From a virus (Duplodnaviria > Heunggongvirae > Uroviricota > Caudoviricetes): a DNA stretch of 64,000 nt. Of this stretch, positions 6,963 to 35,088 are shown in pieces. How positions within the stretch are numbered: the first letter of the stretch is position 1; every line of letters begins with the position of its first letter. The DNA is taken from positions 21,110 through 85,109 of IMG/VR virus record IMGVR_UViG_3300035659_001474; one strand, 5' to 3'. The notes below the pieces were generated by a model. That model made no database searches. It was not told the origin of the DNA and saw only the letters and a program-made list of their open reading frames with translations. The position numbers and the translations under genes are program-made.

Positions 6963-7083
6963 CTCTAACAAAAGTACTACATACAATTTTAACTGGATCA
7001 GAGAAGACTTCTTTTTTGCCACACTTGACACGCCAATTGTAAATAGCACTTCTACCTCTACCACCTCTTATATCTGATGGCAT
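6907..7083 (-). CDS. small hypothetical ORF (58 aa, MPSDIRGGRGRS...NKKKFNQKLKLVPPNY)
   Basis: Manual translation. Its ATG overlaps the stop of the radical-SAM gene (TAATG). It is below the length cut-off of the ORF track. Confidence 0.25.
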
Positions 7084-9383: not shown

Positions 9384-10785
9384 ACGGCACTCTTTGCCTA
9401 ATTCTATGATCTAACAACTCAAGAGTAATAGAAAGACTTTTTCCTATATTAAATGAAGTCATCCCGCAATTATGAACAAATACACCTGCAGCTAGTGCAA
9501 AGTTGCTATACTCTTCAATTGTCAAACAATATACATCTGTTGGTAAACAATCTATTAGTTCAATATTTTTTACAGAATGATTTTGTACCCGTTTAAAGTC
9601 TTTGAAAACTAATTTTAGATGCGCTGCATCAGTTTTTAATGCTTTTAGATGATTAAAGACACCAAAAGCGCTTTTAACTTGTGCATGACATATTGGACAT
9701 TCATATAGTCTATTACCTATTTCTGTAGACTTCTTTATTCCTTTTTCTGATTTAGAATAAGCAATCAAATATTCTCTGCCTCGTTTTCCGGCTAATTTTG
9801 CCATTTCTTTAAATTTATCTGTTTTACAAAATTCTTGAAATGTCTTAGCTGCTCTAATTTTTAGATTTTTGGCAAATTCTGGATCTTTGTGTAATGCACT
9901 CATTTTTTCTGATGACATTTTTGAAAATCTATCTCTATGCTTTTGCCACGTCCTTGTCCAACCGCCACTACCATCTTTATTTGCGATTAATGTATGACTA
10001 GCATGCAAAGTTCGATGATTAGCCCACGACATTCTGACAATATTTGTAGGATTATTATTATACTTATTAAAGTCATCGTGATGTCGAATAAATTTCGATG
10101 TTAATGCAACCATTCTATGACGAACATTGTAATCGTCCGCAAGCAAATGTATAAAATCATATAAATTTGTATATGGATTGTAAACTACAAAATACTCTTT
10201 TAACTTCCAACATTTATTAATCTTTGACAATTGTTCACGAACAACATCTTTCACTTTCACAATATATAATGGTAGTAATGACTGATTAACTGTTAATTGA
10301 TCAGCACGTGTTTCTTCATTGTTTCTCGTATAAAAAATCTGATCAATAGTAGAATAAATTGTTTCATTATTATCTAATGTAACTTTCGCAAGTCGATCGA
10401 CTGTTCTTGTTTTCTTGACAGATAATATTTTCGTAATTACAATATTGCCATGATCATCTTTAGCAAACACATAATTATCTTTATTAGCATTAAAATCATC
10501 TAATAATTCTAACATAGTTAATTCTTTATTATTTGCTAATTTAACTTTTGTATCTTGAGTAAAACATCCAATATCTACGCCCACAACATTGGGAATTGTT
10601 TTATCAGTCATTGGCATCGTAAATCCAATAACAGATCCTTTGCCTGCATGAGTATCAGGCATGATTGCAATTGGATTTGTAAATGCTGGATGATTTACAA
10701 AATTAGTAATCTGAGCAGCGCAAGACTGTTCAATTTGATCAATCATGACTTTTGCAGTTGTGTATTTGCCAGGATATTCAATCAT
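9316..10785 (-). CDS. rtcB: RtcB RNA ligase N-terminal extein, a ~366-aa intein, and a 50-aa C-extein segment
   Basis: MPDTHAGKG and VGVDIG are followed by an intein with an N-terminal Cys (CFTQDTKV...) and the C-terminal ...VFVHN|CGM junction. The C-extein reads CGMTSF..IRQRVPFG, matching RtcB DIGCGM...VPHG. Confidence 0.7.
   Translation of the reverse strand: MIEYPGKYTTAKVMIDQIEQSCAAQITNFVNHPAFTNPIAIMPDTHAGKGSVIGFTMPMTDKTIPNVVGVDIGCFTQDTKVKLANNKELTMLELLDDFNANKDNYVFAKDDHGNIVITKILSVKKTRTVDRLAKVTLDNNETIYSTIDQIFYTRNNEETRADQLTVNQSLLPLYIVKVKDVVREQLSKINKCWKLKEYFVVYNPYTNLYDFIHLLADDYNVRHRMVALTSKFIRHHDDFNKYNNNPTNIVRMSWANHRTLHASHTLIANKDGSGGWTRTWQKHRDRFSKMSSEKMSALHKDPEFAKNLKIRAAKTFQEFCKTDKFKEMAKLAGKRGREYLIAYSKSEKGIKKSTEIGNRLYECPICHAQVKSAFGVFNHLKALKTDAAHLKLVFKDFKRVQNHSVKNIELIDCLPTDVYCLTIEEYSNFALAAGVFVHNCGMTSFNIGKSLSITLELLDHRIRQRVPFGMQTHENSVINMEKGISVASG
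9469..10566 (-). mobile_element. intein inserted in the RtcB DIG|CGM motif, with an internal putative homing-endonuclease region (possibly HNH-like)
   Basis: The intein's splice-junction residues are a Cys at residue 74 and a terminal HN before the +1 Cys. The 366-aa insert contains a central basic, His/Cys-containing domain (ECPICHAQV..FNHLKA). Confidence 0.6.
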
Positions 10786-13956: not shown

Positions 13957-14181
13957 TCATCTGTGCATTCCACATTTCATCACAATTTCTGCACAGCTTG
14001 CAACTATCATTGCAAAATAGTCAAATGATTCAAATTCTTTTACTTTAAGTTCATCAAGTTTGCTTAGTATTTTTATTACTTGATGTTGTTCAAATAGTAA
14101 TGGTATCTGTTTAGATTTAGTGCCACAGTGTATACACATTTGTGACATATCATTCACTGGACTGAAAATTACAGATGCCAT
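13957..14181 (-). CDS. hypothetical protein
   Basis: ORF track. Confidence 0.3.
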   Translation of the reverse strand: MASVIFSPVNDMSQMCIHCGTKSKQIPLLFEQHQVIKILSKLDELKVKEFESFDYFAMIVASCAEIVMKCGMHR

Positions 14182-14227
14182 TTTGTTTTCTACAATGAAG
14201 TCTATCTATCCACATAGTATGTCAAAA

Positions 14228-14974: not shown

Positions 14975-15050
14975 TGGTGGCTGCGTCCGAAGTTGAATCG
15001 GAGGCCTCTTGTGCTTCAAACAAGCGCTCTACCGACTGAGCTACACAGCC
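14975..15050 (-). tRNA. tRNA-Phe (anticodon GAA), CCA encoded
   Basis: Manual fold has acceptor GGCTGTG/CGCAGCC, D arm GCTCAGTCGGTAGAGC, the anticodon loop TT-GAA-GC and the T loop TTCAACT. Confidence 0.85.
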
Positions 15051-15086
15051 ATGATTCTTCATCGTGTTCATCCCAATAAAAAAGCT

Positions 15087-15117
15087 CCATCGATCAATGA
15101 CCGGTGGAGCTTTTTTT
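15087..15117. terminator. hairpin flanked by an A-tract and a T-tract, resembling a bidirectional terminator, in the divergent region
   Basis: Sequence aaaaAGCTCCAtcg-atcaatga-ccgGTGGAGCTttttttt. Confidence 0.35.
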
Positions 15118-15245
15118 AGTAGAAGATTTTGAGTTATCTATCTACGCAAACTCCACCAGTTCATTTCTGCTATTACTAAAGCAGAAATTACACGTGCAAT
15201 TGCTATTGCTAAACGTGTTGTTGGTGGTAATTCGCATCTTCGTTC

Positions 15246-15274
15246 CTTTAGTGAAAATTGTTCTTGTGTATAAT
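15246..15274 (+). promoter_or_regulatory. candidate extended -10 promoter (TGTGTATAAT) for the plus-strand block
   Basis: ttcttgTGTGTATAATataatc lies ~170 bp upstream of the first plus-strand gene. The -35 element is weak. Confidence 0.25.
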
Positions 15275-15440
15275 ATAATCAAAATTATCAAAAGATGTTC
15301 AATTATTTCTCAAAATATTAATCATATATATAGTCGTAGAAAAACCATTGCTTAATTATTGTTTGATTTCTATCACTCTAAATATGATGACAGTCATAAT
15401 CGTTGTTAAAATATAGCAACATAACTGAAAGGATGTCAAA

Positions 15441-16121
15441 ATGTCAACGCCTACTATCACTAGTCAAAGAGTTAGTCCGATTCTTGCTGGTAAGAACAAA
15501 GTAACCACAATCAACATGACACAGCTGTATGTTGATGATCCTGATTTCCCTGGAGGACTTGGTAAAGATTGGGTAATTGAAGCACAAGCAGGTGCACATT
15601 ATACTGTAGATCAAGATTCAGGTGTAGTAGAATCATTTGACTTGATGCCTACAGCAAATTACACAGGTTCATTGTCAGTGGCAGTGAAATTAAGCAGTGA
15701 TGGTGGTTCGACTTGGAGCTCGTGGTTTGGACTTAACATATTGGTTGTCGAAGTTCCTGTAATTTCAAATCAGACGAGCTTTCCGAAAGTGTATATTGGA
15801 TCTTACCTCACGATCACGCTTAACAATTTGATTGTTGTGACAAGTAAGATATATCCTCAGCAATTCACACTATTAGCTTCTACTGGTATAGGATACTCAG
15901 TAATTTCATCAACCAGTACGTCAGTGAAGATTTTAATTGAAGGTAATTTGTCAACTACTTCACGATCAATACCCGTTCGAGTAAATGATGGATCAATTTG
16001 GAGCGACGCCTACAATTATATCGTTAATGTTGTTGCAAAACCTGCGACTGGCAGACCTGCAGCAATGGGAGTTAGTATAACTGCACCGTCACCGTTTGAG
16101 CAGCCTTTTAGAAGAGTCTAA
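15441..16121 (+). CDS. hypothetical Ser/Thr-rich, beta-rich protein (possible structural or glycosylation-target protein)
   Basis: ORF track. It is the first gene of the plus-strand glycan cluster and is followed by a strong terminator. Confidence 0.4.
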   Translation: MSTPTITSQRVSPILAGKNKVTTINMTQLYVDDPDFPGGLGKDWVIEAQAGAHYTVDQDSGVVESFDLMPTANYTGSLSVAVKLSSDGGSTWSSWFGLNILVVEVPVISNQTSFPKVYIGSYLTITLNNLIVVTSKIYPQQFTLLASTGIGYSVISSTSTSVKILIEGNLSTTSRSIPVRVNDGSIWSDAYNYIVNVVAKPATGRPAAMGVSITAPSPFEQPFRRV

Positions 16122-16142
16122 ACTAATTCATAAATTTGAAAA

Positions 16143-16178
16143 AGCTGATGACATAGAATATGTTATCAGCTTTTTTTG
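16143..16178 (+). terminator. rho-independent terminator
   Basis: A 12-bp stem (AGCTGATGACAT/ATGTTATCAGCT) with loop agaat, followed by T7. Confidence 0.6.
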
Positions 16179-16190
16179 CTCTCTTAATAG

Positions 16191-17243
16191 ATGAAAATTA
16201 TGATACCGAAAAAAGTACTAATTGGTAATGATCCTTGGAGTACTGATTTACTAGATTTCATTAAATCTGGTCCTCATTATTTGACCGCGCAGCAATGGCA
16301 AGAAAATATTGACATACCTTTAGAATCTACTTTCTATTACAAATGGTTAATGTCAATGTTCATAGCTGACGGTGCTGTGTGGGGCGGAATATTGAAAAAT
16401 GAAGATGACATTGTGAAGCAATGTGCTAGATATAGAGCTATGTATTTGATAGCTCCTAAGTGGCAAGAGGAATATAGTACATGGCAAACTGATACGAATT
16501 CTGCACACTATTATGGATATAGACCTGCAAAAATTCATCGTAATGGTGCTATTGACATTTGGGACGGCATGCATAGAATAAGCTTATTGACTTTCAAGCA
16601 GTTGCCTATAGAAGTTACAATATGTGAGCGATTACCGGGATGGGCGGAACTATACAAAGAAATTGAAGATTTGTATCCTAATAAAATGCTATATCAGCCG
16701 ATACCACATCCTGACTTTAGTGATTGGGCCACAGCAATTGACGGCAACAAAGAACAAATTATTTGCGACTTCTTCAAACAAAATAAAATTGACAGTGTAT
16801 TAGATTTGGGTACTTGTCACGGTTTCACTCTTTACAAACTAAAAGATCTGATTAAGCACGGTATAGGCATTGAATCTGACAAAATTAGATTTCAAATAGC
16901 AAGTATACTGCTAAACAAAATAGGGTTTTCTTGTCATAATGCAAATGTAATAGACTACATTGAGACTAGTGAAAGTGTAGATTGCACGCTGTGTCTAGCA
17001 ATGCTGCATCATATATCGAGACTATGTCCTATAGAAGTGTTTGAAAAATTCTTGCAAACAGTAGCACAAAAGACTAAGTTTATAATCTATACATTGCCAA
17101 ATCCGAATGAAGATCAGTTCTCATGGATATATGAATCTAAAAGAGACAATTTTGACGAGTACATATTGCAATTGACAGGCTTCAAAACTAGAGAAGTAAT
17201 AGCTAGTTCTAGAGAAATTAGAATATTAGAAAAGAACCTATAA
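16191..17243 (+). CDS. protein with a C-terminal class-I SAM-dependent methyltransferase domain
   Basis: Motif I VLDLGTCHG and post-I GIESD. Confidence 0.55.
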   Translation: MKIMIPKKVLIGNDPWSTDLLDFIKSGPHYLTAQQWQENIDIPLESTFYYKWLMSMFIADGAVWGGILKNEDDIVKQCARYRAMYLIAPKWQEEYSTWQTDTNSAHYYGYRPAKIHRNGAIDIWDGMHRISLLTFKQLPIEVTICERLPGWAELYKEIEDLYPNKMLYQPIPHPDFSDWATAIDGNKEQIICDFFKQNKIDSVLDLGTCHGFTLYKLKDLIKHGIGIESDKIRFQIASILLNKIGFSCHNANVIDYIETSESVDCTLCLAMLHHISRLCPIEVFEKFLQTVAQKTKFIIYTLPNPNEDQFSWIYESKRDNFDEYILQLTGFKTREVIASSREIRILEKNL

Positions 17244-18055
17244 TGTACGGCGTAACATACGATCAAGAAAATAGTACATTAAGTCTTGACAAACATGATT
17301 GTGGTTTGTTATCTAATGCTAGTGTGACATTTAAGAGCCTGCTATCAATACACAAAGATGCGTCAAGACTTGTGAAAATATTATGGCCATATACGTCAGC
17401 TTGGAACAAACCTGACAGATTAAGTCGAAATGTTTATGATCTATATTTTACGACAGTTAACAGTGATATTAAGACAGGACAAGACATTTATTTTAATGCA
17501 ATGATTGGTGATTGTAATAAGTTTGATTTTAGTGCACTAAAGCCAATTAGAGATACATATTTCAATTTATCTAGTGAAGTAATAGCTAGACAAGAGTCAT
17601 TCATTCAAAAGTACCATATAGACTTTGATCGTACTATTGCAATTCTTTATAGAGGTACTGATAAAATTCTTGAAGTGCCAAGAGTACATCCAAAGTATTA
17701 TTTGAACCCAATCAGTCCGATTAAGGACATTTCAAATTATAGGGTACTTATACAGACAGATCAACAACAGGCATTAGACTATTTCAATCACGAGTTACCT
17801 AATTCGTTTCACATTGAAGAAATGCCGTTGACAAAAACAGATCAAGTGATGCATAATTTACAACGTGATACAAGAATGAGTAATTACGATTTGGGCGTCA
17901 ATTATTTGGCTGCGATTGCTATTTTGAGTAAGTGTAAGTATGTAGTTTATGATACTAATAATGCAGGATTATGGATATGTATTTTACGAGGTGACATTAA
18001 TAACATGTGTCAAATACATGCAAGCGTTAACACAATGAATAGATTTGAGTACTAA
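17243..18055 (+). CDS. hypothetical protein in the glycan cluster
   Basis: ORF track; its ATG overlaps the upstream stop. Confidence 0.4.
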   Translation: MYGVTYDQENSTLSLDKHDCGLLSNASVTFKSLLSIHKDASRLVKILWPYTSAWNKPDRLSRNVYDLYFTTVNSDIKTGQDIYFNAMIGDCNKFDFSALKPIRDTYFNLSSEVIARQESFIQKYHIDFDRTIAILYRGTDKILEVPRVHPKYYLNPISPIKDISNYRVLIQTDQQQALDYFNHELPNSFHIEEMPLTKTDQVMHNLQRDTRMSNYDLGVNYLAAIAILSKCKYVVYDTNNAGLWICILRGDINNMCQIHASVNTMNRFEY

Positions 18056-18066
18056 AAGAAAAAATC

Positions 18067-18645
18067 ATGAACAGAACAGACATCATCAACTTCTATACTA
18101 GCAAAAAACAAAACTGTCGTTATCTTGAAATAGGCATTGGAAACGCATCTGCCAATTTCAATAAAATCTTTGCTGCCGTAAAAGACGCAGTAGACCCTGT
18201 CAATCCCTGTAATCATCTTATGAGTTCTGATGCATTTTTCTCAAGTAATACTCAACAGTATGACGTCATTTTTATAGACGGTGATCACAAAGCAGCTCAG
18301 GTCATCAAAGACATTTCAAATTCACTAAAATGTTTGAGTGCTGATGGAATTATACTTTTGCATGATTGTAATCCTGAATTAGAAGTTCATCAAACAGAAA
18401 GTATTACCGTATCTCATTGGAATGGATCAGTTTGGAAAGCAATACTATTTTATAGAATGCTTGATCCTAATTTATCAATCTACACTGTTGATATAGATGA
18501 AGGTATTGGCATAATAAAGCGCGGACAACAAGAGCTATTTGAGTGTAGCGAAACAATGTTTGACTTTGCTTTTCTTTGCAAATATAGACAGAAAATACTC
18601 AATTTGCTAACCGTGCATGAGTGGCAATTGATGGAGCGACAATGA
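18067..18645 (+). CDS. class-I SAM-dependent O-methyltransferase (CmcI/TylF-like)
   Basis: YLEIGIGNASAN followed by DVIFIDGDH and ILLHDC. Confidence 0.55.
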   Translation: MNRTDIINFYTSKKQNCRYLEIGIGNASANFNKIFAAVKDAVDPVNPCNHLMSSDAFFSSNTQQYDVIFIDGDHKAAQVIKDISNSLKCLSADGIILLHDCNPELEVHQTESITVSHWNGSVWKAILFYRMLDPNLSIYTVDIDEGIGIIKRGQQELFECSETMFDFAFLCKYRQKILNLLTVHEWQLMERQ

Positions 18646-19571
18646 TCTATACTATGTCTTATTGGCATTGGTACAAGTACTGTAGTATTCAAGTTAAAAA
18701 TATTACAGTTGACGTTGAACCAAGCAAAGATGACTGGTTCGTTGTATTTCAGCCTTATGATGCTGCTCGTAGAGAACTAGTGTCGACTGTTATTGATAGA
18801 TTTGATTACTCTAAAAGAGTGCTGATTCATTATGAGGGTCGATATCGACAGCCTCACGGATTTAGACTAAGATATCAGCAAAAGTTTGGAAGAATCTATA
18901 CTTACAATTCAACTGATGTCGACGGTGACACTGTCAAGTACATGCCAATACCACTATGGATTACTGAAGAAGAATGCTACCCAACCGGCAATCGATCAAA
19001 ATTCATTGGTACTGTCATAACTAACTATTTCCGAGACGGTGAGCCAAGAAATACAATAATAAACAAATTCAAAAACTTAGGTATGGACGTTTACGGAAAT
19101 TCAGATAAACCTGTGCCATTAGACATTAAACAGCAATCTAGTGATACTAACTTACCTAGATATTCTGCTAAAGTGAAATTGCTATCAGACTACACGTTTG
19201 CTTTTACTATAGAAGGTCAATTAGACTTAGGTCACTTGACTGAAAAACCATTTGACTTGATAGCAGCAGGCTGTATACCTGTTTATTTAGGGCCAAAAGA
19301 TGCATCAACGTTTATTCCTAAAGATTGCTATATTGATTATAGAGATTTCTGGTCTGAAGCTGATCTAATGAAATATCTTAAAAGTATGTCACAGCAAAAA
19401 ATTCAAGAGTATCAGCAGTCAATTGCAAAACATCAAAAAGTTTTAGTAGGCATGAGAACCTTTGAATCATGCATGAGATTTCTATGTAAAGATTTGGGTT
19501 TTGACTGTCAATCACCTTATCATGATCAAATACTAGAACTATCAAATATACTTGCAACAAGGACAAAATAA
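18621..19571 (+). CDS. GT10-like (alpha-1,3-fucosyltransferase-like) glycosyltransferase
   Basis: YTFAFTIEGQLDLGHLTEKPFDLIAAGCIPVYLGP resembles the GT10 motif FxLAFENS..GYVTEK...IPVV.G. Confidence 0.45.
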   Translation: MAIDGATMIYTMSYWHWYKYCSIQVKNITVDVEPSKDDWFVVFQPYDAARRELVSTVIDRFDYSKRVLIHYEGRYRQPHGFRLRYQQKFGRIYTYNSTDVDGDTVKYMPIPLWITEEECYPTGNRSKFIGTVITNYFRDGEPRNTIINKFKNLGMDVYGNSDKPVPLDIKQQSSDTNLPRYSAKVKLLSDYTFAFTIEGQLDLGHLTEKPFDLIAAGCIPVYLGPKDASTFIPKDCYIDYRDFWSEADLMKYLKSMSQQKIQEYQQSIAKHQKVLVGMRTFESCMRFLCKDLGFDCQSPYHDQILELSNILATRTK

Positions 19572-20101
19572 TGAAGTTGCATTTAGGTTGCGGCAAACGA
19601 TATATTCCTGGCTATACGCACATTGACGTTATAGAATATCCTCACATTGATATAGTGAATAGTGTTGATCGTCTACCAATGATTGAAGATGAATCATGTG
19701 ATGTAGTTTATAGTTGTCATGTATTAGAGCACTTTCACAAAAAAGTCATTATAGATGTTCTTCATGAATGGTTAAGAGTACTAAAAGTAAATGGTACATT
19801 GAGAATATCTGTACCTGATATGCAAAGTCTACTTAAAGTGTATGAGAAAACAGATGATCTTTCATTAATACTCGGTCCTATATTTGGCAGGTGCAATTAC
19901 CTATACAATTTTCATTACACAGGATTTGACTTTAAGTCTTTGAAACATGTACTTGAATTAGCAGGTGCTAAAGATGTTAGGCGTTATGACTGGAGACTAA
20001 CAGAACATGCAGACGTTGATGACTACAGTCAAGCATATATTCCGCAAGATAAAATAAACGGGACTCTTATTAGCTTAAATGTAGAAGCGACAAAAGTATG
20101 A
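19571..20101 (+). CDS. class-I SAM-dependent methyltransferase
   Basis: MKLHLGCGKRYIPGY followed by VVYSCHVLEHF. Confidence 0.55.
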   Translation: MKLHLGCGKRYIPGYTHIDVIEYPHIDIVNSVDRLPMIEDESCDVVYSCHVLEHFHKKVIIDVLHEWLRVLKVNGTLRISVPDMQSLLKVYEKTDDLSLILGPIFGRCNYLYNFHYTGFDFKSLKHVLELAGAKDVRRYDWRLTEHADVDDYSQAYIPQDKINGTLISLNVEATKV

Positions 20102-23100
20102 GTGTATTTTTATCTGACTTAACAGTCTTTGTCATAAGTAGTGGTCACAATCCTTGCTATGATGCATGCTTGCAGTCATTAAACTCTCAAACAGTTTCAT
20201 TTAAGATTGAAATTATCAAAGATGTTCATCCGATGTCAAAGGCCTTTCAATGTATGATCGATTCTTGCAAAACTCGATACTATATTGAAATTGATGAAGA
20301 TATGGTCATGAACGCAAATGGTATTGAAATCCTACACAAGTATGCTATTCAATCTGCACCAATGACAGCTATGATTGCCTGTAAATTGATTGATGTGCAT
20401 TTGAATTTTGAAATTTATGGTGTCAAGATTTACAAGCATGACATACTTAAGAGATATCCATACGATTTGTCCTCAATGTCATGTGAAGTTGAACAAATTG
20501 ACAGAATGAAAAATGATCAATATAAAGTCGCATTAATGACTGATGTAGTCGGTCAACATGCGCCTTATTGGTCTAATGAAGGAATATTTGATAGATATCG
20601 CAATTTACTTGACAAATTCAAACAGTTTAGATATCCCTGGACAGGCGATCTACCTGCAAAATTGTGGTCAATGTTGAAAACTCAGCCAACTGAGCAGAAC
20701 ATGTATGCTTTACTTGGTGCATATACTAGTTTGATCACAGAAACTGTTCAAGTAGGAGAGAAAGACTTTAGAAATAGAAATGCGCCATTTGAAACAATGA
20801 GAAGCTTCATGAATCCTCCTGTTAGTGCGAACTTGTATCTAACATCAAAATGTAATTTCAATTGCAAGTTTTGTTATCGTAATTCTCAATTAATTGAACA
20901 GTCTATTGACATGACGCTAAAAAGCGTTAGTGACTTGTTAATAAGATATCCGTCAATTAGAGGCGTTTGTTGTGCTGGCTATGGAGAACCATTTTTATGC
21001 GATAGTCTTTTTGACATCATATCATTTCTAAAGTCAAAAAATAAAGTTGTCGGACTAATAACAAACGGATCACTAATAGTTGAAAACATCAATAGTTTGT
21101 TAGCAAACAGACCGGACTATATATCTATTAGCTTGAATGCGTCTAATGCAAAAATACATAGCGAAATAAACAAGTCATTTACGTTCGATACTGTACTACA
21201 AGGTATAAGACTCTGCGTAAGCAGTGGATTACCTACCTACTGTTCGTACGTATGCACCAAAAGCAATTTACAGTATATTCCTGAATTTTTGAAATTAGTA
21301 GACTCTTTAGGTGTAAAAACTGTGCACTTACTAAATTTGTTGCCACACTTAGCAAGTGACTATGACGACAAATCATTTTGGCAAGAAGTATTGACGAATG
21401 ATGACAGACGCAAAATTGATGCATTACAAGAACTTCCTGAAGCTCATTTAATCAAGCTGTACCCGACGCTAATAAATCGTAACGAAATTCAATGTAATTG
21501 TCAAATACCATGGACTACAATAGGTATAAACGGTAATGAAAGCGTGACATTCTGTGGATCAGTTTATGCGCCAGATAGAGCTAATGGGTCACTTAAGAAT
21601 TTTGAAAATGTTTGGTTAAATAAGAGTGCTAGAGAATTAAGAACTAATTTATGTGATGTCAATACGATGACTGACACGTGTAAAATGTGTTTTAGAAATT
21701 GCAACTCGTATAATCCACCAGCAAAACAAATAGTGTCACAACCTAAGCAAATTCCAAAAAAGCTTAAAGTTTGTAAAATTATTGATCAATTTGGTTGGGC
21801 CTATTACTTTGTTGCGAAAGAACAGCAATTATATTCTTCGCATGACATCACGTACAAACGACTGTTAGATGTCACTGACATCGATGCAGACATAGTATAC
21901 ATTCATGCACCAAATATTGATCACGCTAAAATCAATAGTCTTGTTTCATCATTAAAGCAAAAAGGTATCAAAGTTATTGGTGGTTATGGCGGAGAATCAA
22001 AACTAAAATATGACACTAATCCGGATCTTATAGTATCAATATCGATGAGACATATTGACTGCTTGAACAATATGTACCCCAATAAACCTGTTGTGTTCCT
22101 GCCAGAATCAATTGACACCAGCTTCTTTACTGCAGCTGTAAAAGATGACAATAATTTTATAGTTGGCTGGGCAGGCTGCTTGCGCGATGTAAAACGACCT
22201 CACTTACTAGACAAACTAAAATTCAACGTTGTTAAGAAAAATGACTGGGGCAAGCAGTTTTTCTCTGATGGTAGATTACTAGACGACATGAAGTCATTTT
22301 ATCATTCAATTGATGTACTAGTATTGACAAGTATTAGCGAATGTATGCCAAGAGTAGTATTAGAGGCTATGTCATGTGGATTGCCTGTAGTTTCTACAAG
22401 AGTTGGTTGTATTGGAATGCTACTGGACAAAGACTGGATTGTAAGTGTATTACCTGAAGAAAATGTTATTTCAGAAATGAATCATAAACTTTCATTGCTA
22501 AGTAATAGTAAGTCACTACGACAAGAAGTAGGCAAAAGAAACAGACAACACATTTTGAAGTTTTTTAGTTGGGCAGCTAATCAAAAATTATGGGATAGAA
22601 CATTTGAACTAGTTATGCAAAACAGATTCAAAGATATAGCAGTTCTTAGTGATGAATTTATACAGTCATTACCAAATTCAAACGAATTGCAATTCAATAA
22701 TTTGGACATGCAGACCGAACAAACTAATTTTCCAGAATTAATTCAATGTGAATTAGTCAAATGCGAACCGGTCTTACAGCAACCTAAATTAGAACCTGCA
22801 TCTAATGTAGAATTAGTAAAAATTGAAACTCGTCTTGAACCATCTAAATTCAAAAAACCAGTATTCATATCCTACTACACGAAAAATACGGGTTATGAAA
22901 ACGAATATAAAAAATTGGAATCATCATTAAAACGATTCAGTCTAGATTATGAAATAGTTGGCATTGATTCACAAGGCAGTTGGTTCAACAATTGCTTCTA
23001 TCGCACAACATTTGTCAAAGACATGCTAAACAAACATGGTCGACCTGTAGTATGGGTTGACTGCGATGCAATAATACAACAAGATCCACAGTTACTTTCT

Positions 23101-23424
23101 ACATTAAGCGAGTTTGACTTTGCATTCCACCCAAGAGTTAGATCAAATGGTAGTACTGAACTTCTCGGCGGTACAATGTATTTTAATTGTACTGTCGGTG
23201 CACTAAAGTTGCTAGCTAAATGGACTGAATTAGTAAATGCAGATAGAACAAAATATCGACTCGATCAATCTTATTTGCATGAAGCAGTCAGTACCTTACA
23301 TTCACTGAAAGTTTATTATTTACCAGCCACTTATTGTCAAATATTTGACCTAATGAAAGATGCTGGTAAGCCTGTCATAGAGCACTTTCAGGCGTCAAGA
23401 AAATACAAGCAACATGTTAAATAA
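20098..23424 (+). CDS. 1108-aa multidomain glycan-modifying protein: a GT2-like N-terminus, a radical SAM/SPASM-like domain, a GT4 (Glycos_transf_1) domain and a C-terminal nucleotide-sugar transferase-like domain
   Basis: VISSGHNPCY (GT-A-like); LYLTSKCNFNCKFC (CxxxCxxC) with downstream Cys clusters; ECMPRVVLEAMSCGLPVVSTRVG (GT4 E-x7-E); VVWVDCDAII (DxD). Confidence 0.6.
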   Translation: MSVFLSDLTVFVISSGHNPCYDACLQSLNSQTVSFKIEIIKDVHPMSKAFQCMIDSCKTRYYIEIDEDMVMNANGIEILHKYAIQSAPMTAMIACKLIDVHLNFEIYGVKIYKHDILKRYPYDLSSMSCEVEQIDRMKNDQYKVALMTDVVGQHAPYWSNEGIFDRYRNLLDKFKQFRYPWTGDLPAKLWSMLKTQPTEQNMYALLGAYTSLITETVQVGEKDFRNRNAPFETMRSFMNPPVSANLYLTSKCNFNCKFCYRNSQLIEQSIDMTLKSVSDLLIRYPSIRGVCCAGYGEPFLCDSLFDIISFLKSKNKVVGLITNGSLIVENINSLLANRPDYISISLNASNAKIHSEINKSFTFDTVLQGIRLCVSSGLPTYCSYVCTKSNLQYIPEFLKLVDSLGVKTVHLLNLLPHLASDYDDKSFWQEVLTNDDRRKIDALQELPEAHLIKLYPTLINRNEIQCNCQIPWTTIGINGNESVTFCGSVYAPDRANGSLKNFENVWLNKSARELRTNLCDVNTMTDTCKMCFRNCNSYNPPAKQIVSQPKQIPKKLKVCKIIDQFGWAYYFVAKEQQLYSSHDITYKRLLDVTDIDADIVYIHAPNIDHAKINSLVSSLKQKGIKVIGGYGGESKLKYDTNPDLIVSISMRHIDCLNNMYPNKPVVFLPESIDTSFFTAAVKDDNNFIVGWAGCLRDVKRPHLLDKLKFNVVKKNDWGKQFFSDGRLLDDMKSFYHSIDVLVLTSISECMPRVVLEAMSCGLPVVSTRVGCIGMLLDKDWIVSVLPEENVISEMNHKLSLLSNSKSLRQEVGKRNRQHILKFFSWAANQKLWDRTFELVMQNRFKDIAVLSDEFIQSLPNSNELQFNNLDMQTEQTNFPELIQCELVKCEPVLQQPKLEPASNVELVKIETRLEPSKFKKPVFISYYTKNTGYENEYKKLESSLKRFSLDYEIVGIDSQGSWFNNCFYRTTFVKDMLNKHGRPVVWVDCDAIIQQDPQLLSTLSEFDFAFHPRVRSNGSTELLGGTMYFNCTVGALKLLAKWTELVNADRTKYRLDQSYLHEAVSTLHSLKVYYLPATYCQIFDLMKDAGKPVIEHFQASRKYKQHVK

Positions 23425-24043
23425 TAGATTAGTGATCATTGGTGGCGGATCAAGTATAAAAGAATTTGACTTAGCTAAGCTTGATCATGAATTCACATTC
23501 GGTTTGAATTTTGTTTGCCACTATTATGAACCCACAGCATTAATATGGATCGATCGCAATTTCTACAACCAAAACCAACAAGCTATAGACAAACTCAGGT
23601 GTGTGAAAATCACAAGAGATAGCCGTGATGTGCCAACAGATGTATTCAAATTAATGTCTGCAAAACAATATCATGGTTTAGATGGATTAACATCTGGTCT
23701 GTACCATCCGTATTTAGTCGGACTATTCTCGTTGTCATTGGGAATAGCACTTAAATTCAAAGAGATTTATTTACTTGGATTTGATGGACGATTTATGAAT
23801 GACAACAGTCATTTCCACGATATAAAGTATCGTGGTACAGAAGATGAAGATGTTTACATTCGTGGCAATAAATACTTCGATGTCTATAAAGATTGTGAAT
23901 CTAAGATCTACAATGTTTCACCTGATTCAGCGATTCATACATTCACTAAAATCACATACAATGACTTTTGCAAAACAATTGATAATGACGATATTGATCA
24001 AATAGATGCAAGAAAATGGCTTGTTAAATCTTTGACAATTTAA
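23414..24043 (+). CDS. GT42/CstII-like (sialyltransferase-like, DUF115) glycosyltransferase
   Basis: LVIIGGGSSIKEFDLAKL and YHPYLVGLFSLSLGIALKFKEIYLLGFDGRF..NDNSHF parallel Campylobacter CstII (VIIAGNGPSLKEID; GVYMCAVAIALGYKEIYLSGID..NDNSHY). Confidence 0.5.
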   Translation: MLNNRLVIIGGGSSIKEFDLAKLDHEFTFGLNFVCHYYEPTALIWIDRNFYNQNQQAIDKLRCVKITRDSRDVPTDVFKLMSAKQYHGLDGLTSGLYHPYLVGLFSLSLGIALKFKEIYLLGFDGRFMNDNSHFHDIKYRGTEDEDVYIRGNKYFDVYKDCESKIYNVSPDSAIHTFTKITYNDFCKTIDNDDIDQIDARKWLVKSLTI

Positions 24044-24294
24044 GTGATTATTTTCTTGCAATGGAATTCAAGCATCAAATACTTGATTAATTTTCAAAGG
24101 AGCTTCGTATGTAGTACTTCATCTTTTTTTTAATATTGATAAACTAATTAAAGAAGTATTGGCGCGCAGAGGTCGTCGTAGCTGACCCTCACAATTTCGA
24201 TAGCAGAAGTAATCGTTGATAGCGCGCTTTCGGCTCGGCAAAACCAGCCAATTATTAGATGTTATAGTTGTTTGAAAATTGGACGTTATGAAAA

Positions 24295-24329
24295 AGGGTC
24301 GGCGAGACTCCATTCGCCGGCCCTTTTTA
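24295..24329. terminator. bidirectional rho-independent terminator at the convergent junction
   Basis: aaaaAGGGTCGGCGA-gactccat-TCGCCGGCCCTttttt, an 11-bp stem with one G·U pair and an A/T tract on both sides. It overlaps the stop of the 24327..25031 gene. Confidence 0.7.
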
Positions 24330-25031
24330 ATGAATAGCGTTTTTGTAGAGAGACGAAAGATTGTCTTCGAGACCACACTTGTTACACGACATGTGTAGCG
24401 TATTTTGTAGCAACTCATCAAAAGAAGAGTCAATAGTACCTATCTTGTGACAAAAGCGTGACTCACCTGCAACAATATTACCATGAATATCAATTGACGG
24501 TGAGCAAATTTTACCCTTCATTCTTAAGAGCATCACGGCTTTTGAAAAGTCTTTCAAAGTCTTACAAGCACTTCTAAGATTGAAACACAATGGTGACATT
24601 CGACCAGCAGGCTCATTCAAATTTCTTGCTCGTCCAATGGGACTAAGAAGATTGATTTTATCAGCAAATAGTACTCGAGGATGATTGATAGGTTCTACTT
24701 TCAGTGGATAATACTTTGGATCATTATAGACTTGAATTGGAATATTGTATGCTAGAATCATTTCTCGAGTCTTAGTATCAGACCAGAATAAGCCGTTGCT
24801 TAAAAGAATAGCATTCCAGTCTTTCAATTCATTCAAAATCTGTTGAATTTGTGGATGATCAGTAGGTTCACCGCCACTTACTAATATAATACGTCGACCA
24901 CTGTATATATGCTCTATGAAAACGAGTGTCTTTCTAAACGTTTCAAGAGACATATGTTCACCGACAGATTTTGCATCTTCCATGCAATGGCTGCAACTCA
25001 TTTGACATTGTGTGGTGATTTTAACCAGCAT
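24327..25031 (-). CDS. radical SAM domain protein
   Basis: TQCQMSCSHC (CxxxCxxC), LVSGGEPT, and C-terminal Cys clusters. Confidence 0.65.
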   Translation of the reverse strand: MLVKITTQCQMSCSHCMEDAKSVGEHMSLETFRKTLVFIEHIYSGRRIILVSGGEPTDHPQIQQILNELKDWNAILLSNGLFWSDTKTREMILAYNIPIQVYNDPKYYPLKVEPINHPRVLFADKINLLSPIGRARNLNEPAGRMSPLCFNLRSACKTLKDFSKAVMLLRMKGKICSPSIDIHGNIVAGESRFCHKIGTIDSSFDELLQNTLHMSCNKCGLEDNLSSLYKNAIH

Positions 25032-28324: not shown

Positions 28325-28738
28325 CTATAGTATTACGTCAGAATATCTTATCAATGCATTAAGAATCTCGCTGTAACCGCCTGAATGACCGTCTTCATAG
28401 GCCTTGCCCATAGCTTTATCAGCTTTGGCATGACCTTTAAGACCTACAAAATCAATTGCATCATCATTGAATTTGTCAGGATGATCTTCATAATAGCCAG
28501 CAGAAATGCGTTCCCAAATATCTCCTGAGTCATACTTACGCTGTCTTTCCTTTTCAACGCACTCAGGACATCGATCAATGTAATTGCAGTTGAGTCTAAG
28601 CGGTGTTCCCTCAACATGCCAGCCTAGTTTTCTTGCTTCATCAAATGTCGCAGTTGTGATACTTGCGCCGCACTTACAACCAATCGTATACGTTTTGTTC
28701 TCACGAATCATAACGTCCTCCTGGAATGAATAAGTCAT
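28325..28738 (-). CDS. hypothetical Zn-binding protein
   Basis: CKCG...CPEC. Confidence 0.4.
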   Translation of the reverse strand: MTYSFQEDVMIRENKTYTIGCKCGASITTATFDEARKLGWHVEGTPLRLNCNYIDRCPECVEKERQRKYDSGDIWERISAGYYEDHPDKFNDDAIDFVGLKGHAKADKAMGKAYEDGHSGGYSEILNALIRYSDVIL

Positions 28739-35078: not shown

Positions 35079-35088
35079 GATAGTACCG

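Follow-up and report, generated by a model that had tools for sequence, protein, structure and literature searches.

A plus-strand phage gene island that may assemble a decorated glycan in the cytoplasm of the infected cell

The window, the whole 64,000-nucleotide stretch of DNA analysed here, comes from an uncultivated large bacteriophage and carries a block of eight co-directional plus-strand genes (15441-24043) whose most likely role is to produce a decorated sugar chain within the host cell during infection. We tentatively read the block as a soluble (cytoplasmic) phage cassette for glycan assembly that glycosylates a phage protein. The cassette holds about six glycosyltransferase domains (GT2-like, GT4 and GT77-like in the p1108 megaenzyme, with GT10, FUT8/NodZ/POFUT-fold and DUF115/CstII-superfamily enzymes beside it), three class-I methyltransferases, one of them fused to an SbnI-like ParB/Srx domain, and a radical-SAM domain with its catalytic Cys intact. 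The first-pass annotation had listed seven products for the eight genes, leaving out the 270-aa gene (17243-18055), and had called the toolkit complete; that word has to be dropped, as profile searches identified no nucleotide-sugar synthesis genes, initiating transferase or flippase in the island.

The coordinates of the block were confirmed by an ORF check (Table 1), and neighbouring ORFs mostly overlap, by 1-11 nt. As first proposed, it is the sole plus-strand block of the window, since every other plus-strand ORF of at least 120 aa overlaps a longer minus-strand ORF and the sign of the GC skew switches, window-wide, across the island alone. Its GC composition is native (GC 0.350 vs 0.355 in the rest of the window; GC3 0.281 vs 0.272) and it is present and syntenic in the relatives L010, L002/L011 and L003, in place of the absence from syntenic relatives and capture-like composition that the first-pass annotation had named as evidence against its own proposal. 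The surroundings comprise tRNA, replication and transcription genes, with structural genes not among them. The island promoter presumably lies in the divergent intergenic region, which contains several sigma-70-like hexamer pairs (e.g. 15251-15279), with no excess over shuffles. Both terminators proposed earlier, near 16143 and 24295, correspond to hairpins. The first (16138-16176) combines an 18 bp stem with a downstream T-run (dG -21.3 kcal/mol, z = -4.9, 0/200 shuffles folding equally well) and is identical in L010, the closest relative; L002 has no hairpin after its p226 gene, and the following gene there overlaps p226. This hairpin is probably an attenuator. The second, G+C-rich and terminator-like, lies ~250 nt beyond the last island gene; with an A-run on one side and a T-run on the other it can act on both strands, and would end the island as well as the minus-strand operon that converges on it.

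Table 1. Features of the island and its borders, in window coordinates.
Feature	Position	Strand	Evidence
tRNA-Phe	14975-15050	minus	
Divergent intergenic region between tRNA-Phe and first island gene	15060..15440	+	presumed promoter site
Island ORFs	15441-16121, 16191-17243, 17243-18055, 18067-18645, 18621/18642-19571, 19571-20101, 20098-23424, 23414-24043	+	
p226, two tandem Ig-like beta-sandwich domains and disordered tail	15441..16121	+	composition, structure model
Intrinsic-terminator-like hairpin and T-run, gap between p226 and enzyme genes	about 16138..16178	+	dG, shuffles
p350 N-terminal domain, ParB/Srx-like, SbnI-type	16191..16760	+	domain-only family profile vs PDB
p350 C-terminal domain, class-I SAM methyltransferase	16761..17243	+	family profile vs PDB
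p270, FUT8/NodZ/POFUT/FUT1-type (GT23/65/68/37-like) fucosyltransferase-fold glycosyltransferase	17243..18055	+	
p192, class-I SAM methyltransferase, Methyltransf_24 (TylF/O-methyltransferase-like)	18067..18645	+	PF13578 E 5.3e-10
p316, GT10-family (alpha-1,3/4-fucosyltransferase-like) glycosyltransferase	18621..19571	+	PF00852 E 2.8e-13
p176, small class-I SAM methyltransferase (Methyltransf_11)	19571..20101	+	PF08241 E 4e-8
p1108 domain 1, GT-A / GT2-like	20098..20802	+	PF00535 via homologues
p1108 domain 2, radical SAM and Cys-rich extension	20803..21732	+	PF04055 E 6e-20
p1108 domain 3, GT4 (GT-B, Glycos_transf_1)	21733..22677	+	PF00534 2.9e-12, PF13692 2.5e-12
p1108 variable low-complexity linker	22678..22872	+	identity among relatives
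p1108 domain 4, nucleotide-diphospho-sugar transferase (GT77-like GT-A)	22873..23424	+	PF03407 E 4e-6
p209, minimal DUF115/MptE-like (Maf) and CstII (GT42) superfamily enzyme	23414..24043	+	PHROG, homologue Pfam, PDB profile
Bidirectional terminator-like hairpin	24291..24328	both	z = -5.3 plus, -3.4 minus

The first gene encodes p226, and its earlier description as a Ser/Thr-rich beta-protein is borne out. Ser+Thr amount to 22.6% of its residues, 4.7 SD above the 38 other window proteins (11.8 +/- 2.3%, maximum 18.3%), and it is predicted, at moderate model confidence (pLDDT 68), to be all-beta, with domains at residues ~1-103 and ~107-198; the C-terminal ~25 residues form a conserved, disordered tail. 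p226 lacks a signal peptide, a TM segment and Cys. Hoc-like proteins share the Ig-like fold, as do tail, head and S-layer proteins. Homologues are restricted to five phage lineages, in the island every time; in all five p226 is co-inherited with p1108, its gene immediately precedes that of p1108 in every case where the methyltransferase/GT10 block sits elsewhere or is missing, and more distant carriers lack it. Identity to L010 is 82% for p226, 92-99% for the methyltransferase/GT10 block, 86% for p1108 and 79% for p209; p226 evolves faster than most island enzymes, with p1108 and p209 diverging similarly. We regard p226 as a candidate acceptor or virion-surface protein, and count its location, Ser/Thr richness, Ig-like fold, faster evolution and conserved hairpin towards an acceptor role. 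The evidence leans modestly towards this adjacent protein, and in the window's lineage the co-inherited p226 is, tentatively, the likeliest acceptor, which would be O-glycosylated in the cytoplasm. None of the island proteins contains a membrane segment (no 19-residue hydrophobic window at the TM threshold), which, together with the missing signal peptide of p226, we count for a soluble cytoplasmic system.

The three class-I SAM methyltransferases announced by the first-pass annotation (p350, p192, p176) are profile-supported. In the PDB, the family profile of the p350 methyltransferase finds WbdD at E 1.7e-18 (70 bits), with the runner-up at 1e-10; the window sequence alone gives weak Pfam methyltransferase matches and a very weak match to the pseudaminic-acid-associated methylase TIGR03587 (E 0.0085). 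The profile of its N-terminal domain, in which an invariant G..DGxHR motif precedes W, Y and HPDF, matches three entries for SbnI, a free L-serine kinase (E 1.9e-4 and 5.3e-4); the only other PDB match, a spectrin chain (E 0.63), was set aside as chance. p176 matches PHROG 6636 (E 1e-12) and is the best-conserved gene of the island (99% identity to L010). The GT10 assignment of p316 is upheld (50.4 bits against PF00852, cut-off 23.9; motifs YTFAFTIEG...HLTEKPFD...IPVYLG), and its true start is probably the ATG at 18642, since residue 8 is the start in gene callers and most homologue alignments. R137 is invariant in p270, whose fold class takes in protein O-fucosyltransferases. p192 matches PHROG 27561 (E 3e-14), labelled 'DNA methyltransferase'.

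This label, the ParB-like domain of p350 (a fold often fused to DNA methylases), the replication and nucleotide-metabolism genes around the island and the dUTPase, dCMP deaminase or MazG-like genes flanking it in relatives could be taken to indicate DNA hypermodification, in which modified bases (5-hydroxymethyl-pyrimidine or the like) would carry an oligosaccharide, tailored by the methyltransferases and radical SAM, that counters restriction/CRISPR. Phage DNA bears diverse glycans (Pyle 2024, as summarised in PMC12619734), and YerA41 thymidine carries an adduct of ~1 kDa (PMC9023294). We consider this explanation highly improbable. The window ORFs that were scanned include neither a base-hydroxymethylase gene nor any other for DNA modification, the methyltransferases match sugar/O-methyltransferases (WbdD, TylF/Methyltransf_24) and not DNA methylases, and one relative's cassette adds a carbohydrate-type sulfotransferase. 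To our knowledge, GT10, FUT8/NodZ-fold, CstII/DUF115 and GT77-like enzymes are not among the known DNA glycosyltransferases.

Within the 1108-aa protein, the radical SAM (E 6e-20), GT4 (E 3e-12) and further nucleotide-sugar transferase domains (PF03407, 27.4 bits, cut-off 22; motif WVDCDAI) proposed earlier are all recovered, the last being confined to the window's lineage, while the GT2 and SPASM labels need qualification. The window copy of domain 1 has no Pfam match, and its GT2 nature is assigned transitively, by the 7/18 homologues that match PF00535; D66-x-D68 (EIDEDM) is invariant, and the domain is a core common to 23/23 distinct related phage loci and 38 bacterial loci. In domain 2, C252-x3-C256-x2-C259 and the downstream C468, C486, C528 and C531 are all invariant in 15/15 homologues. 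The four downstream Cys could hold one auxiliary cluster, and the extension looks twitch-like or like a partial SPASM, which does not justify the full SPASM label. In the PDB, domain 2 comes closest to unnamed rSAM structures, NifB, viperins, MoaA and BlsE, and domain 3 to BshA-type GT4 enzymes. The four domains are conserved at similar rates (49-91% identity among relatives), whereas the linker varies freely (18-57%).

Peptide or cofactor maturases make up many of the higher NCBIfam matches of the rSAM domain (tungsten-cofactor maturase at the top, StsB, WgkB), with the mycofactocin maturase ranking lower (E 5e-11); all score 4-10 times below the family cut-offs. p176 is weakly similar to MftM, the mycofactocin oligosaccharide methyltransferase (E 0.004), the order structural gene, hairpin, modifying enzymes resembles that of RiPP operons, and the conserved p226 tail would suit a precursor. 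A glycosylated small molecule or RiPP-like product, that is, a peptide-derived or aminoglycoside-like metabolite tailored in mycofactocin style (MftC/MftF/MftM) with p226 or its tail as precursor or scaffold, nevertheless seems very improbable to us: p226 is a folded two-domain protein of 226 aa without Cys, the island has no protease or exporter, and many phages carry the rSAM domain while lacking p226.

For p209, the earlier GT42/CstII-like call is partly supported, at the superfamily level. The window copy has no Pfam match; it matches PHROG 4603 ('alpha-2,3-sialyltransferase', E 1e-11), and 10/30 family members match PF01973 (DUF115/MptE-like, Maf family). Against the PDB, the family profile ranks CstII first, at E 0.017 and near full length, followed by Cst-I and Maf 5mu5, with CstII/Cst-I as the only plausible matches, at marginal E values (0.017-0.06). 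That the island makes host-mimicking structures, as had been suggested, is speculation. CstII, FUT8, NodZ and GT10 enzymes use glycans and lipids as readily as proteins, which argues against a protein acceptor, and the Helicobacter and Campylobacter GT10 and CstII enzymes target LPS/LOS.

Modular in make-up, the cassette turns up in many uncultivated phages, jumbo phages included, and comparison across related phages indicates that the island enzymes are under purifying selection; among 50,697 GenBank phage records there was no match beyond isolated domains. The enzyme core (GT2-like+rSAM, GT4, GT10, p270, p176, p192, p350) is also found in more distant jumbo phages without p226 and p209, and p226 therefore cannot be a universal acceptor. 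This distribution counts for a serious rival to phage-protein glycosylation, though one that we rate as rather unlikely: remodelling of the host surface glycan by enzymes at the cytoplasmic membrane face, acting on a lipid-linked host glycan, whether O-antigen, LOS core, capsule or a precursor of the S-layer glycan. The enzymes would attach fucose-type and ulosonic-acid residues as well as methyl caps, blocking, for example, superinfection or virion trapping on lysed cells, with p226 unrelated or accessory. Comparable GT/LPS clusters in large cyanomyoviruses have been interpreted in this way (PMC12801897). WbdD, nearest to the p350 methyltransferase, caps undecaprenyl-linked O-antigen; in bacteria, homologues of the GT4+GT2-like pair are found in polysaccharide-type clusters that also contain other GT2/GT4 genes and an ABC exporter; and the L004/L005 lineage has a polyprenyl-phosphate sugar-phosphotransferase (Bac_transf) 4.6 kb from the cassette. 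Such a phosphoglycosyltransferase is, however, absent from the window and every other locus examined, as are a membrane protein, flippase, polymerase, ligase and initiating transferase from the island, and strict co-inheritance of p226 with p1108 and p209 is left unexplained. Known serotype-converting phage systems are small, membrane-bound and from temperate phages, whereas the source genome looks large and virulent-type. Against glycosylation of a phage protein we count the jumbo carriers without p226, the bacterial polysaccharide-type clusters, the L004/L005 sugar-phosphotransferase, the non-structural neighbourhood and the moderate p226 model.

The nucleotide sugars would be host-made (GDP-fucose-type, UDP/GDP-hexose, possibly CMP-ulosonic acid) and the product may be a short, branched, O-methylated oligosaccharide with deoxyhexose. 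Its non-reducing end would be capped by the WbdD-like methyltransferase, possibly after phosphorylation by the ParB/Srx domain of p350, and the radical-SAM domain may act on a sugar, nucleotide-sugar or attachment residue. The hairpin after the p226 gene would raise p226 abundance above that of the downstream enzymes, and p226 would probably be placed on the virion exterior as a decoration or adhesion protein. The cassette is conserved among uncultivated phages, and of the two candidate attachment targets for its glycan, phage protein and host glycan, the protein is modestly preferred.

The earlier remark that loci of this kind are poorly described in bacterial viruses is half true, with mycobacteriophage virion glycosylation and cyanomyovirus GT clusters on record. 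The mycobacteriophage glycosyltransferases are accompanied by O-methyltransferases, and we know of no radical-SAM, GT10, FUT8-fold or DUF115 enzyme or multidomain megaenzyme in these operons, which are smaller than the island and show no sequence relationship to it (50,697 GenBank phage records; isolated domains only). The operons of Che8, Corndog and Myrna (Freeman et al. 2023, as summarised in PMC12619734) resemble the island in having soluble phage glycosyltransferases, in cassettes varying between relatives, that modify phage structural proteins in the cytoplasm; glycosylated capsid and tail-tube are a precedent, with acceptors at subunit C-termini established by mass spectrometry, whereas the island acceptor is a candidate. 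The T4-like cyanomyoviruses P-SSM2, S-SCSM1 and S-SCSM2R are large virulent phages, as the island source appears to be, with many glycosyltransferases (GT10, GT11, GT25, GT2, GT4), and their clusters also have a radical-SAM 'maturase', their functions being predicted from genes (PMC12801897). Those clusters include sugar-nucleotide synthesis genes, which the island does not, lack the fused GT2-rSAM-GT4, the ParB/Srx-methyltransferase fusion and p226, and have no close sequence relationship to it that we detected.

H. pylori FutA/FutB (GT10) and Campylobacter CstII (GT42), soluble or peripheral enzymes acting on GDP-fucose or CMP-sugars, are similar to island enzymes at the family (GT10) or superfamily (CstII/DUF115) level, with no evidence in the island of Lewis or ganglioside mimicry. 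The Helicobacter enzymes carry heptad repeats and amphipathic helices at the C-terminus, which are presumably missing from p316. WbdD, the E. coli O8/O9a chain terminator (PDB 4azs and related), is by far the most similar to the p350 methyltransferase and, as in p350, the methyltransferase is joined to another domain: in WbdD this has a eukaryotic-like protein kinase fold, in p350 it is a ParB/Srx-like, SbnI-type candidate kinase whose activity is purely putative. A coiled-coil ruler and a WbdA polymerase partner are both missing on the phage side. Maf flagellin islands (Campylobacter, Helicobacter, Aeromonas, Clostridium; PMC11339370) place a DUF115 enzyme, methyltransferases and glycosyltransferases beside a Ser/Thr-rich protein, as here, and the characterised Maf enzymes O-glycosylate flagellin Ser/Thr in the cytoplasm. 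Maf proteins have ~600 aa with extra domains while p209 is a 209-aa minimal core, the phage island lacks the nonulosonic-acid synthesis genes, and its putative acceptor is an Ig-like protein in place of flagellin. Chlorovirus PBCV-1 differs in being a eukaryotic-algal virus with N-linked glycans on Vp54, unrelated domains and no radical-SAM. Its A064R (GT+GT+methyltransferase, with the capsid protein as target) and A111/114R (three GT domains) are, as in the island, viral multidomain transferases with methyltransferases, and they assemble an O-methylated glycan that contains fucose on a virion protein, without using the host glycosylation machinery (PMC7019647).

The island comprises eight plus-strand ORFs, whose products of 226, 350, 270, 192, 316, 176, 1108 and 209 residues are named here by length in gene order (p226 to p209); the p316 ORF encodes 309 residues if begun at the ATG at 18642. 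Most of the genes are packed, with overlaps of 1-11 nt. Across the 64-kb window, the remaining plus-strand ORFs of at least 120 residues all overlap longer minus-strand genes, and both GC skew and AT skew are positive over the island only. The ORF overlap pattern and the sign of the skew thus bear out the first-pass annotation, which had taken the island for the sole plus-strand block of the window. A divergent spacer of 390 nt separates its start from a minus-strand cluster of five tRNAs. Terminator-like hairpins lie where that annotation had put them; the first is the same base for base in L010, the closest relative locus. The surrounding window carries typical large-phage genes (NAD-dependent ligase, DnaB, a DnaC-like loader, helicases and an FtsK-like ATPase) and also encodes a PolX-PHP polymerase, a sigma-70-family factor and an intein-containing RtcB. 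A 128-kb JGI contig encodes proteins identical to those of the window, as do Logan assemblies of run SRR11721627. Megablast of the island with 20 kb of flanking window against 50,697 GenBank phages returned no match, and tblastn of p1108 against GenBank phages returned isolated-domain matches only, in metagenomic megaphages and one Cronobacter phage. Judged from these 50,697 records, the virus has no cultured relative.

Positions of the island, of the p1108 domains (in residues) and of signals and other genes in the window
Feature	Position	Strand	Evidence or description
Island, eight genes	15441-24043	+	
p270 gene	17243-18055	+	
p1108 GT2-like domain	residues 1-235		PF00535 in 7/18 homologous domains, best E 1.6e-6
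p1108 radical SAM domain	residues 236-545		PF04055, E 6.4e-20, 72 bits
p1108 GT4 domain	residues 546-860		PF00534, 46.9 bits vs 26.4; PF13692, 47.7 vs 27
p1108 Nucleotid_trans domain, GT77-like	residues 926-1108		PF03407, 27.4 bits vs 22, E 4e-6
18-bp hairpin with T-run, after p226 gene	16138-16178	+	dG -21.3 kcal/mol, z -4.9
G+C-rich hairpin with A-run and T-run flanks	24291-24328	both	closes island and converging minus-strand operon
G+C-rich element	24159-24250	+	GGCGCGC...GCGCGC closing stem with inner arms
tRNA with CUA anticodon	12474-12548	-	amber suppressor; 'Pyl' according to ARAGORN
Second radical SAM gene	24327-25031	-	234 aa; CQMSCSHC motif; PF04055, E 3e-7
Third radical SAM gene	7083-7985	-	300 aa; PF04055, E 7e-15
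RtcB RNA ligase	8373-10785	-	two overlapping ORFs in different frames
Auxiliary gene set	2310-4067, 5688-6542, 28701-30395, 31293-32702, 34284-36666, 47455-48798	-	
TnpB/Cas12f-like gene of L002	17877-18926 (L002)	-	OrfB_IS605 and Cas12f1-like_TNB

Several features outside the eight genes deserve mention in their own right. The G+C-rich element in the 250-nt spacer past the island is kept in L010 (approximately 14135-14215); it folds no better than shuffles (z of -0.9 and -1.6), has no Rfam match and is not called as a tRNA by ARAGORN. The five-tRNA cluster combines the CUA tRNA with Thr-CGU, Cys-GCA, Ser-GCU and Phe-GAA. Among 46 window ORFs, TAA ends 27, TGA 14 and TAG five, so this region uses the standard code; the suppressor tRNA could still serve stop-codon readthrough or late-gene recoding. 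The second radical SAM gene converges on the island, and L010 has a 234-residue ORF at the equivalent position, a likeness of length and position. The two RtcB ORFs encode 489 residues (N-terminal part and intein/HNH) and 336 residues (C-terminal part), and could represent an intein-interrupted gene, a split gene or a frameshift. Auxiliary genes that are unusual for a phage encode an M17 leucyl aminopeptidase, an R2K-type ATP-grasp protein, the PolX-PHP polymerase, an SPFH/Band-7 protein, and an ABC permease adjoining an NMT1/OmpA-domain protein.

The largest product, p1108, is a megaenzyme whose four domains are kept at similar rates, while the linker before the last of them is variable. The window copy of the N-terminal GT2-like domain has no Pfam match and a profile of this domain has no sequence match in the PDB; its DxD motif is invariant. 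In the radical SAM domain, C252, C256 and C259 (CX3CX2C) are invariant in 15/15 homologues, as expected of the superfamily. Further downstream, C468, C486, C528 and C531 are invariant in 15/15, C291 is present in 14/15 and C535 in 1/15. A SPASM domain of the TIGR04085 type, with two auxiliary 4Fe-4S clusters, has seven cysteines in the pattern CX9-15GX4C...CX2CX5CX3C...C; the p1108 domain lacks this pattern, and its scores against the SPASM families of NCBIfam lie far under the cut-offs. The earlier label of SPASM was thus too strong: the four invariant downstream cysteines are enough for one auxiliary cluster, which argues for a twitch-like domain. The nearest solved structures are unnamed radical SAM proteins, NifB, viperins, MoaA and BlsE, with 9DFN as the best PDB match. 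The domain can be placed in the superfamily but in no named family, all NCBIfam families falling far below cut-off. When present, it is always fused to a GT2-like domain. Some homologues of p1108 residues 1-534 (P0008-P0012, on contigs of up to 93 kb) are interrupted at the conserved GGEP SAM-binding motif by an intein of about 350 residues that includes a LAGLIDADG or HNH endonuclease (PF14890, PF14528, PF13392). A gene for a GT2-like and radical SAM protein is an unusual host for an intein, which suggests that the domain is important for the phage.

Three stand-alone transferases accompany the megaenzyme. p316 matches PF00852 with 50.4 bits (cut-off 23.9, E = 2.8e-13) over profile positions 4-136 of 182, and the same annotation falls on its homologues in the related loci L002, L003 and L009. 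Its motif stretch reads FAFTIEGQLDLGHLTEKPFD...IPVYLG. Compared by eye with the alpha-1,3-fucosyltransferase motif, which we take to be FxLxFENS...YxTEK with a catalytic/GDP-binding Glu-Lys, p316 keeps TEK and the first Glu and has Gly in place of Asn. By sequence, p316 is clearly a member of GT10. The p270 gene had been left undescribed. Even a 34-member profile of p270 finds no match in Pfam, NCBIfam, PHROG or PDB sequences, and the protein does not fall into the CAZy/Pfam families of GT23, GT65, GT68 or GT37 by sequence; structure prediction alone gives it the GT-B-variant fold of the FUT8/NodZ/POFUT fucosyltransferases (GT23/65/68/37). Its invariant R137 lies within YRGTDK, which resembles the HxRRxDK-type motif I, whose Arg binds the GDP phosphate; R137 may be its counterpart. 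Some p270 relatives are fused to FkbM methyltransferases, to GT41 or to radical SAM and methyltransferase domains, and one has a GT11 match below threshold. We regard p270 as the representative of a separate, undescribed sequence family with at least 844 cluster representatives. p209 itself has no Pfam match and hits PHROG 4603 (‘alpha-2,3-sialyltransferase’) with E = 1e-11. Searched against the PDB, its 30-member profile ranks CstII first over residues 3-192, with a marginal E of 0.017-0.05 (Cst-I, 0.059); in the E = 0.017 alignment, which is nearly full-length, the GxGxS and LxGxD motifs line up. PF01973 (DUF115/MptE-like, Maf flagellin glycosyltransferases) is matched by 10/30 p209 homologues, with a best E of 4.9e-9, and is present in the closer homologues P0032-P0035 (51-54% identity). 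By transitive homology only, p209 may be classed as a minimal member of the DUF115/CstII superfamily. The first-pass inventory of enzymes was largely right as regards the GT10, GT4, radical SAM and methyltransferase domains, its GT42 assignment being marginal. A 213-residue ORF in the jumbo-phage locus L014 was considered as a p209 analogue and proved unrelated (hhalign probability <1%); the family of 213-218 residues to which it belongs is a sulfotransferase.

Of the methyltransferases, p192 and p176 are class-I enzymes (Methyltransf_24, E = 5e-10, and Methyltransf_11, E = 4e-8, respectively). The third, p350, is a fusion. A 12-member family profile matches its C-terminal half to the methyltransferase domain of WbdD in the PDB with E = 1.7e-18 and 70 bits, the next match being at 1e-10; a three-member profile gives E = 3e-6. 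WbdD is a kinase-methyltransferase fusion that caps the O-antigen of E. coli O8/O9a with methyl phosphate at its non-reducing end. p350 shows no match to the eukaryotic-like protein-kinase fold of WbdD and lacks its combination of kinase fold and coiled-coil ruler. Its N-terminal core has an invariant G..DGxHR motif, and the only significant PDB matches of this domain are to SbnI, a free-serine kinase of the ParB/Srx fold (E = 1.9e-4). p350 resembles WbdD in its methyltransferase half only; it may work like WbdD but is no member of that family. Since WbdD itself fuses a kinase to a methyltransferase, the two domain similarities suggest that p350 may be a non-orthologous WbdD analogue.

The eight-gene order is complete in L010, at 79-99% protein identity, and in L002/L011, where identity is 61-85%; all of these have an extra TylF-type methyltransferase, and L002 also a 305-residue gene of no assigned function. 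The locus L003 holds the same genes in two divergent arms, and L004/L005 hold p226, p1108 and p209 only. Relatives come from IMG/VR, as viral contigs 113-126 kb in length. A wider scan of IMG/VR found 21 viral loci with parts of p1108, contigs of 234-388 kb among them, in which the domains are rearranged as a GT4 gene followed by a GT2-like and radical SAM gene, or as a GT2-like and GT4 fusion lacking the radical SAM domain. In L013/L014 the rearranged parts are followed by homologues of GT10, p176, p270, the TylF-type methyltransferase, p192 and p350, and genes of the p350 family accompany a GT2-like domain in 16 of 23 distinct loci. The jumbo-phage cassettes are flanked by a conserved GT4-methyltransferase fusion, a GT2 and a GT1_2-like gene, and in L013-L015 and L018 a carbohydrate-type sulfotransferase (PF03567, E = 3e-14) follows the GT2-like and radical SAM gene, which implies that the glycans of these phages are sulfated as well as methylated. 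Neither p226 nor p209 was found in the jumbo-phage loci searched. Cellular genomes (Planctomycetota, Acidobacteriota, Rokubacteria, Chloroflexota and others) have the GT2-like domain only, usually with GT4, in 36/38 loci; the other two, L031 and L036, have the radical SAM part too. The one bacterial locus looked at belongs to a cluster of polysaccharide type that also has other GT2/GT4 genes and an ABC exporter.

Composition also bears on the origin of the cassette. The island matches the rest of the window in GC (0.350 vs 0.355) and GC3 (0.281 vs 0.272). Its codon-frequency correlation with the rest is 0.912, against 0.961 +/- 0.015 for random gene sets, and we attribute this difference mostly to amino-acid composition. 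The GC and GC3 match and the synteny in relatives rule out recent capture from a host, which the first-pass annotation had raised; in these phages the cassette is native and of long standing. An archaeal virus is likewise ruled out, by sigma-70, NusG, trigger factor, DnaB and bacterial-type tRNAs in the window and its relatives. L003 (GCA_030650065.1, contig JAUSEY010000618.1, 33 kb) was binned as a Nitrosarchaeum MAG; its island adjoins DnaB, a DnaC-like gene, trigger factor, Cas4 and TROVE/Ro60 in phage-like synteny with the window, and it is probably a mis-binned phage contig, a composition artefact of low GC. From position alone in this synteny, a 447-residue window ORF may be a trigger-factor-like chaperone. 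Near the island of L002 a TnpB/Cas12f-like gene is inserted, which is absent from the window. The loci L012-L015, L018 and L019 (IMG/VR contigs of 75-388 kb, mostly jumbo) have dUTPase, dCMP deaminase, CAP-domain and DUF7873 proteins around their cassettes. A distant p1108 homologue (33% identity) occurs in L006/L007, ENA metagenome scaffolds of 105 kb and 26 kb, as GT4 followed by GT2-like and radical SAM; it lies in a cluster of about 14 kb whose genes encode GT4, GT2, GT29-like sialyltransferase, methyltransferase and epimerase enzymes; neighbours of the cluster are SLH-domain, volactin (actin-like) and fn3 proteins, and the replicon may be that of a cell or of a huge phage.

Taken together, these comparisons show a conserved set of predicted soluble glycosyltransferases, methyltransferases and a radical SAM domain, with catalytic motifs intact. 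No island protein reaches a mean Kyte-Doolittle value of 1.6 in any 19-residue window, and no membrane segment is predicted. The description of a complete toolkit goes too far, as there are no sugar-nucleotide genes in the island, so the enzymes must draw on host nucleotide-sugar pools. The two fucosyltransferase-type enzymes would use GDP-fucose or a related GDP-6-deoxyhexose and the DUF115/CstII-type p209 a CMP-activated ulosonic acid; further residues would come from the GT4, GT2-like and GT77-like domains. The chain would be decorated by three O-methyltransferase-like enzymes (four in relatives) and plausibly ended by the WbdD-like p350. BtrN and other twitch-type radical SAM enzymes act on carbohydrates, and the radical SAM domain most plausibly alters a sugar or nucleotide sugar used or made by the GT2-like domain; alternatively, it could alter the attachment residue. 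DNA as the substrate of hypermodification seems very unlikely: no base hydroxymethylase or attachment-point enzyme appeared among those window ORFs that were scanned, the window being 64 kb of a contig that measures at least 128 kb. That the enzymes build a small-molecule or RiPP-like product is hardly more probable.

For the acceptor in this lineage we tentatively favour p226. The protein has no family match in Pfam, PHROG, NCBIfam or PDB sequence searches. Its AlphaFold model (pLDDT 68) consists of two beta-sandwich domains in tandem, followed by a tail in which about 25 residues are disordered, and Foldseek against viral models returns Ig/PKD/BIG2 arrays from the tail, head and fibre proteins of phages. 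Ser and Thr make up 22.6% of p226, 4.7 SD above the other window proteins; no hydrophobic segment, signal peptide or Cys was found in it. Homologues were found in five lineages only, invariably inside the island, and a metagenome scan for further relatives returned the same lineages. Wherever the methyltransferase/GT10 block sits elsewhere or is missing, the p226 gene is directly upstream of p1108. This strict co-inheritance and adjacency with the enzymes speaks for p226, as do its Ser/Thr richness, an Ig-like fold typical of virion-surface proteins, and a cytoplasmic location shared with wholly soluble enzymes. The conserved hairpin after its gene is attenuator-like and would lift p226 expression over that of the enzymes. 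p226 also lies at the fast end of the island in identity to L010 (p226 82%, p1108 86% and p209 79%, vs 92-99% for the methyltransferase/GT10 block). Relatives of p209 and p270 act on proteins: the fold class of p270 takes in protein O-fucosyltransferases, and characterised DUF115 members O-glycosylate Ser/Thr of flagellins (PMC11339370). Precedents exist in mycobacteriophages (as summarised in PMC12619734) and chloroviruses (PMC7019647).

The evidence against p226 as acceptor is what makes remodelling of the host-envelope glycan a serious rival, one we consider rather unlikely: jumbo phages carry the enzyme core without p226, bacterial homologues resemble polysaccharide enzymes, a phosphoglycosyltransferase lies near the cassette in one lineage, though it is absent elsewhere, and the island sits among replication genes. 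The phosphoglycosyltransferase, that of L004, has no homologue in the window or any other locus, and therefore stands outside the conserved system. A 226-residue ORF of L014, suggestively positioned as a p226 analogue, is unrelated (hhalign probability <1%). The first-pass annotation had proposed glycosylation of a virion protein or remodelling of the host surface, which was reasonable but unproven; its appeal to host mimicry was overstated. With p226 as the acceptor, the parts could be joined into a self-contained viral protein-glycosylation machine of new design, running from radical linkage chemistry to a methyl(-phosphate) cap, a reading that in its entirety we hold to be improbable. Here the megaenzyme would make an unusual sugar or sugar-protein linkage radically and then extend the chain, the two fucosyltransferase-fold enzymes would add branches, and the ParB/Srx-fold kinase fused to a WbdD-like methyltransferase would add a methyl-phosphate or methyl cap; the finished glycan would coat a phage-encoded Ig-like surface protein, and jumbo phages would run an elaborated version with a sulfotransferase and extra GT/methyltransferase fusions.

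Whatever its target, the phage glycan cassette is real, conserved and unusually rich. Should it act on a virion protein, glycan shielding or adhesion of virions would reach beyond actinobacteriophages, and new enzymes for glyco-engineering would be at hand; should it act on the host envelope, virulent phages would have in it a large auxiliary pathway for remaking the cell surface. To our knowledge, experimentally known phage-encoded glycosylation comprises few systems: DNA glucosylation, serotype conversion and mycobacteriophage virions. Large and jumbo uncultivated phages of several lineages have in common a modular and much richer glycan toolkit. Three of its elements are without characterised counterpart: a radical SAM domain embedded between glycosyltransferase domains, the large undescribed fucosyltransferase-fold family of p270, and the ParB/Srx-methyltransferase fusion, which may be an independently invented glycan chain terminator. 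The island proteins match no Pfam/PHROG family of Gtr-type systems (GtrA/GtrB/Gtr, Oac, Wzy), and the lack of membrane proteins argues against serotype conversion of that type. In its predicted mode of action the cassette is best likened to the virion-glycosylation operons of mycobacteriophages and to the multidomain GT/methyltransferase enzymes of chlorovirus PBCV-1, with no detectable sequence relationship to either; to what is reported for those two systems it adds an embedded radical SAM domain, two fucosyltransferase-type enzymes, a DUF115-type enzyme and the ParB/Srx-methyltransferase fusion.
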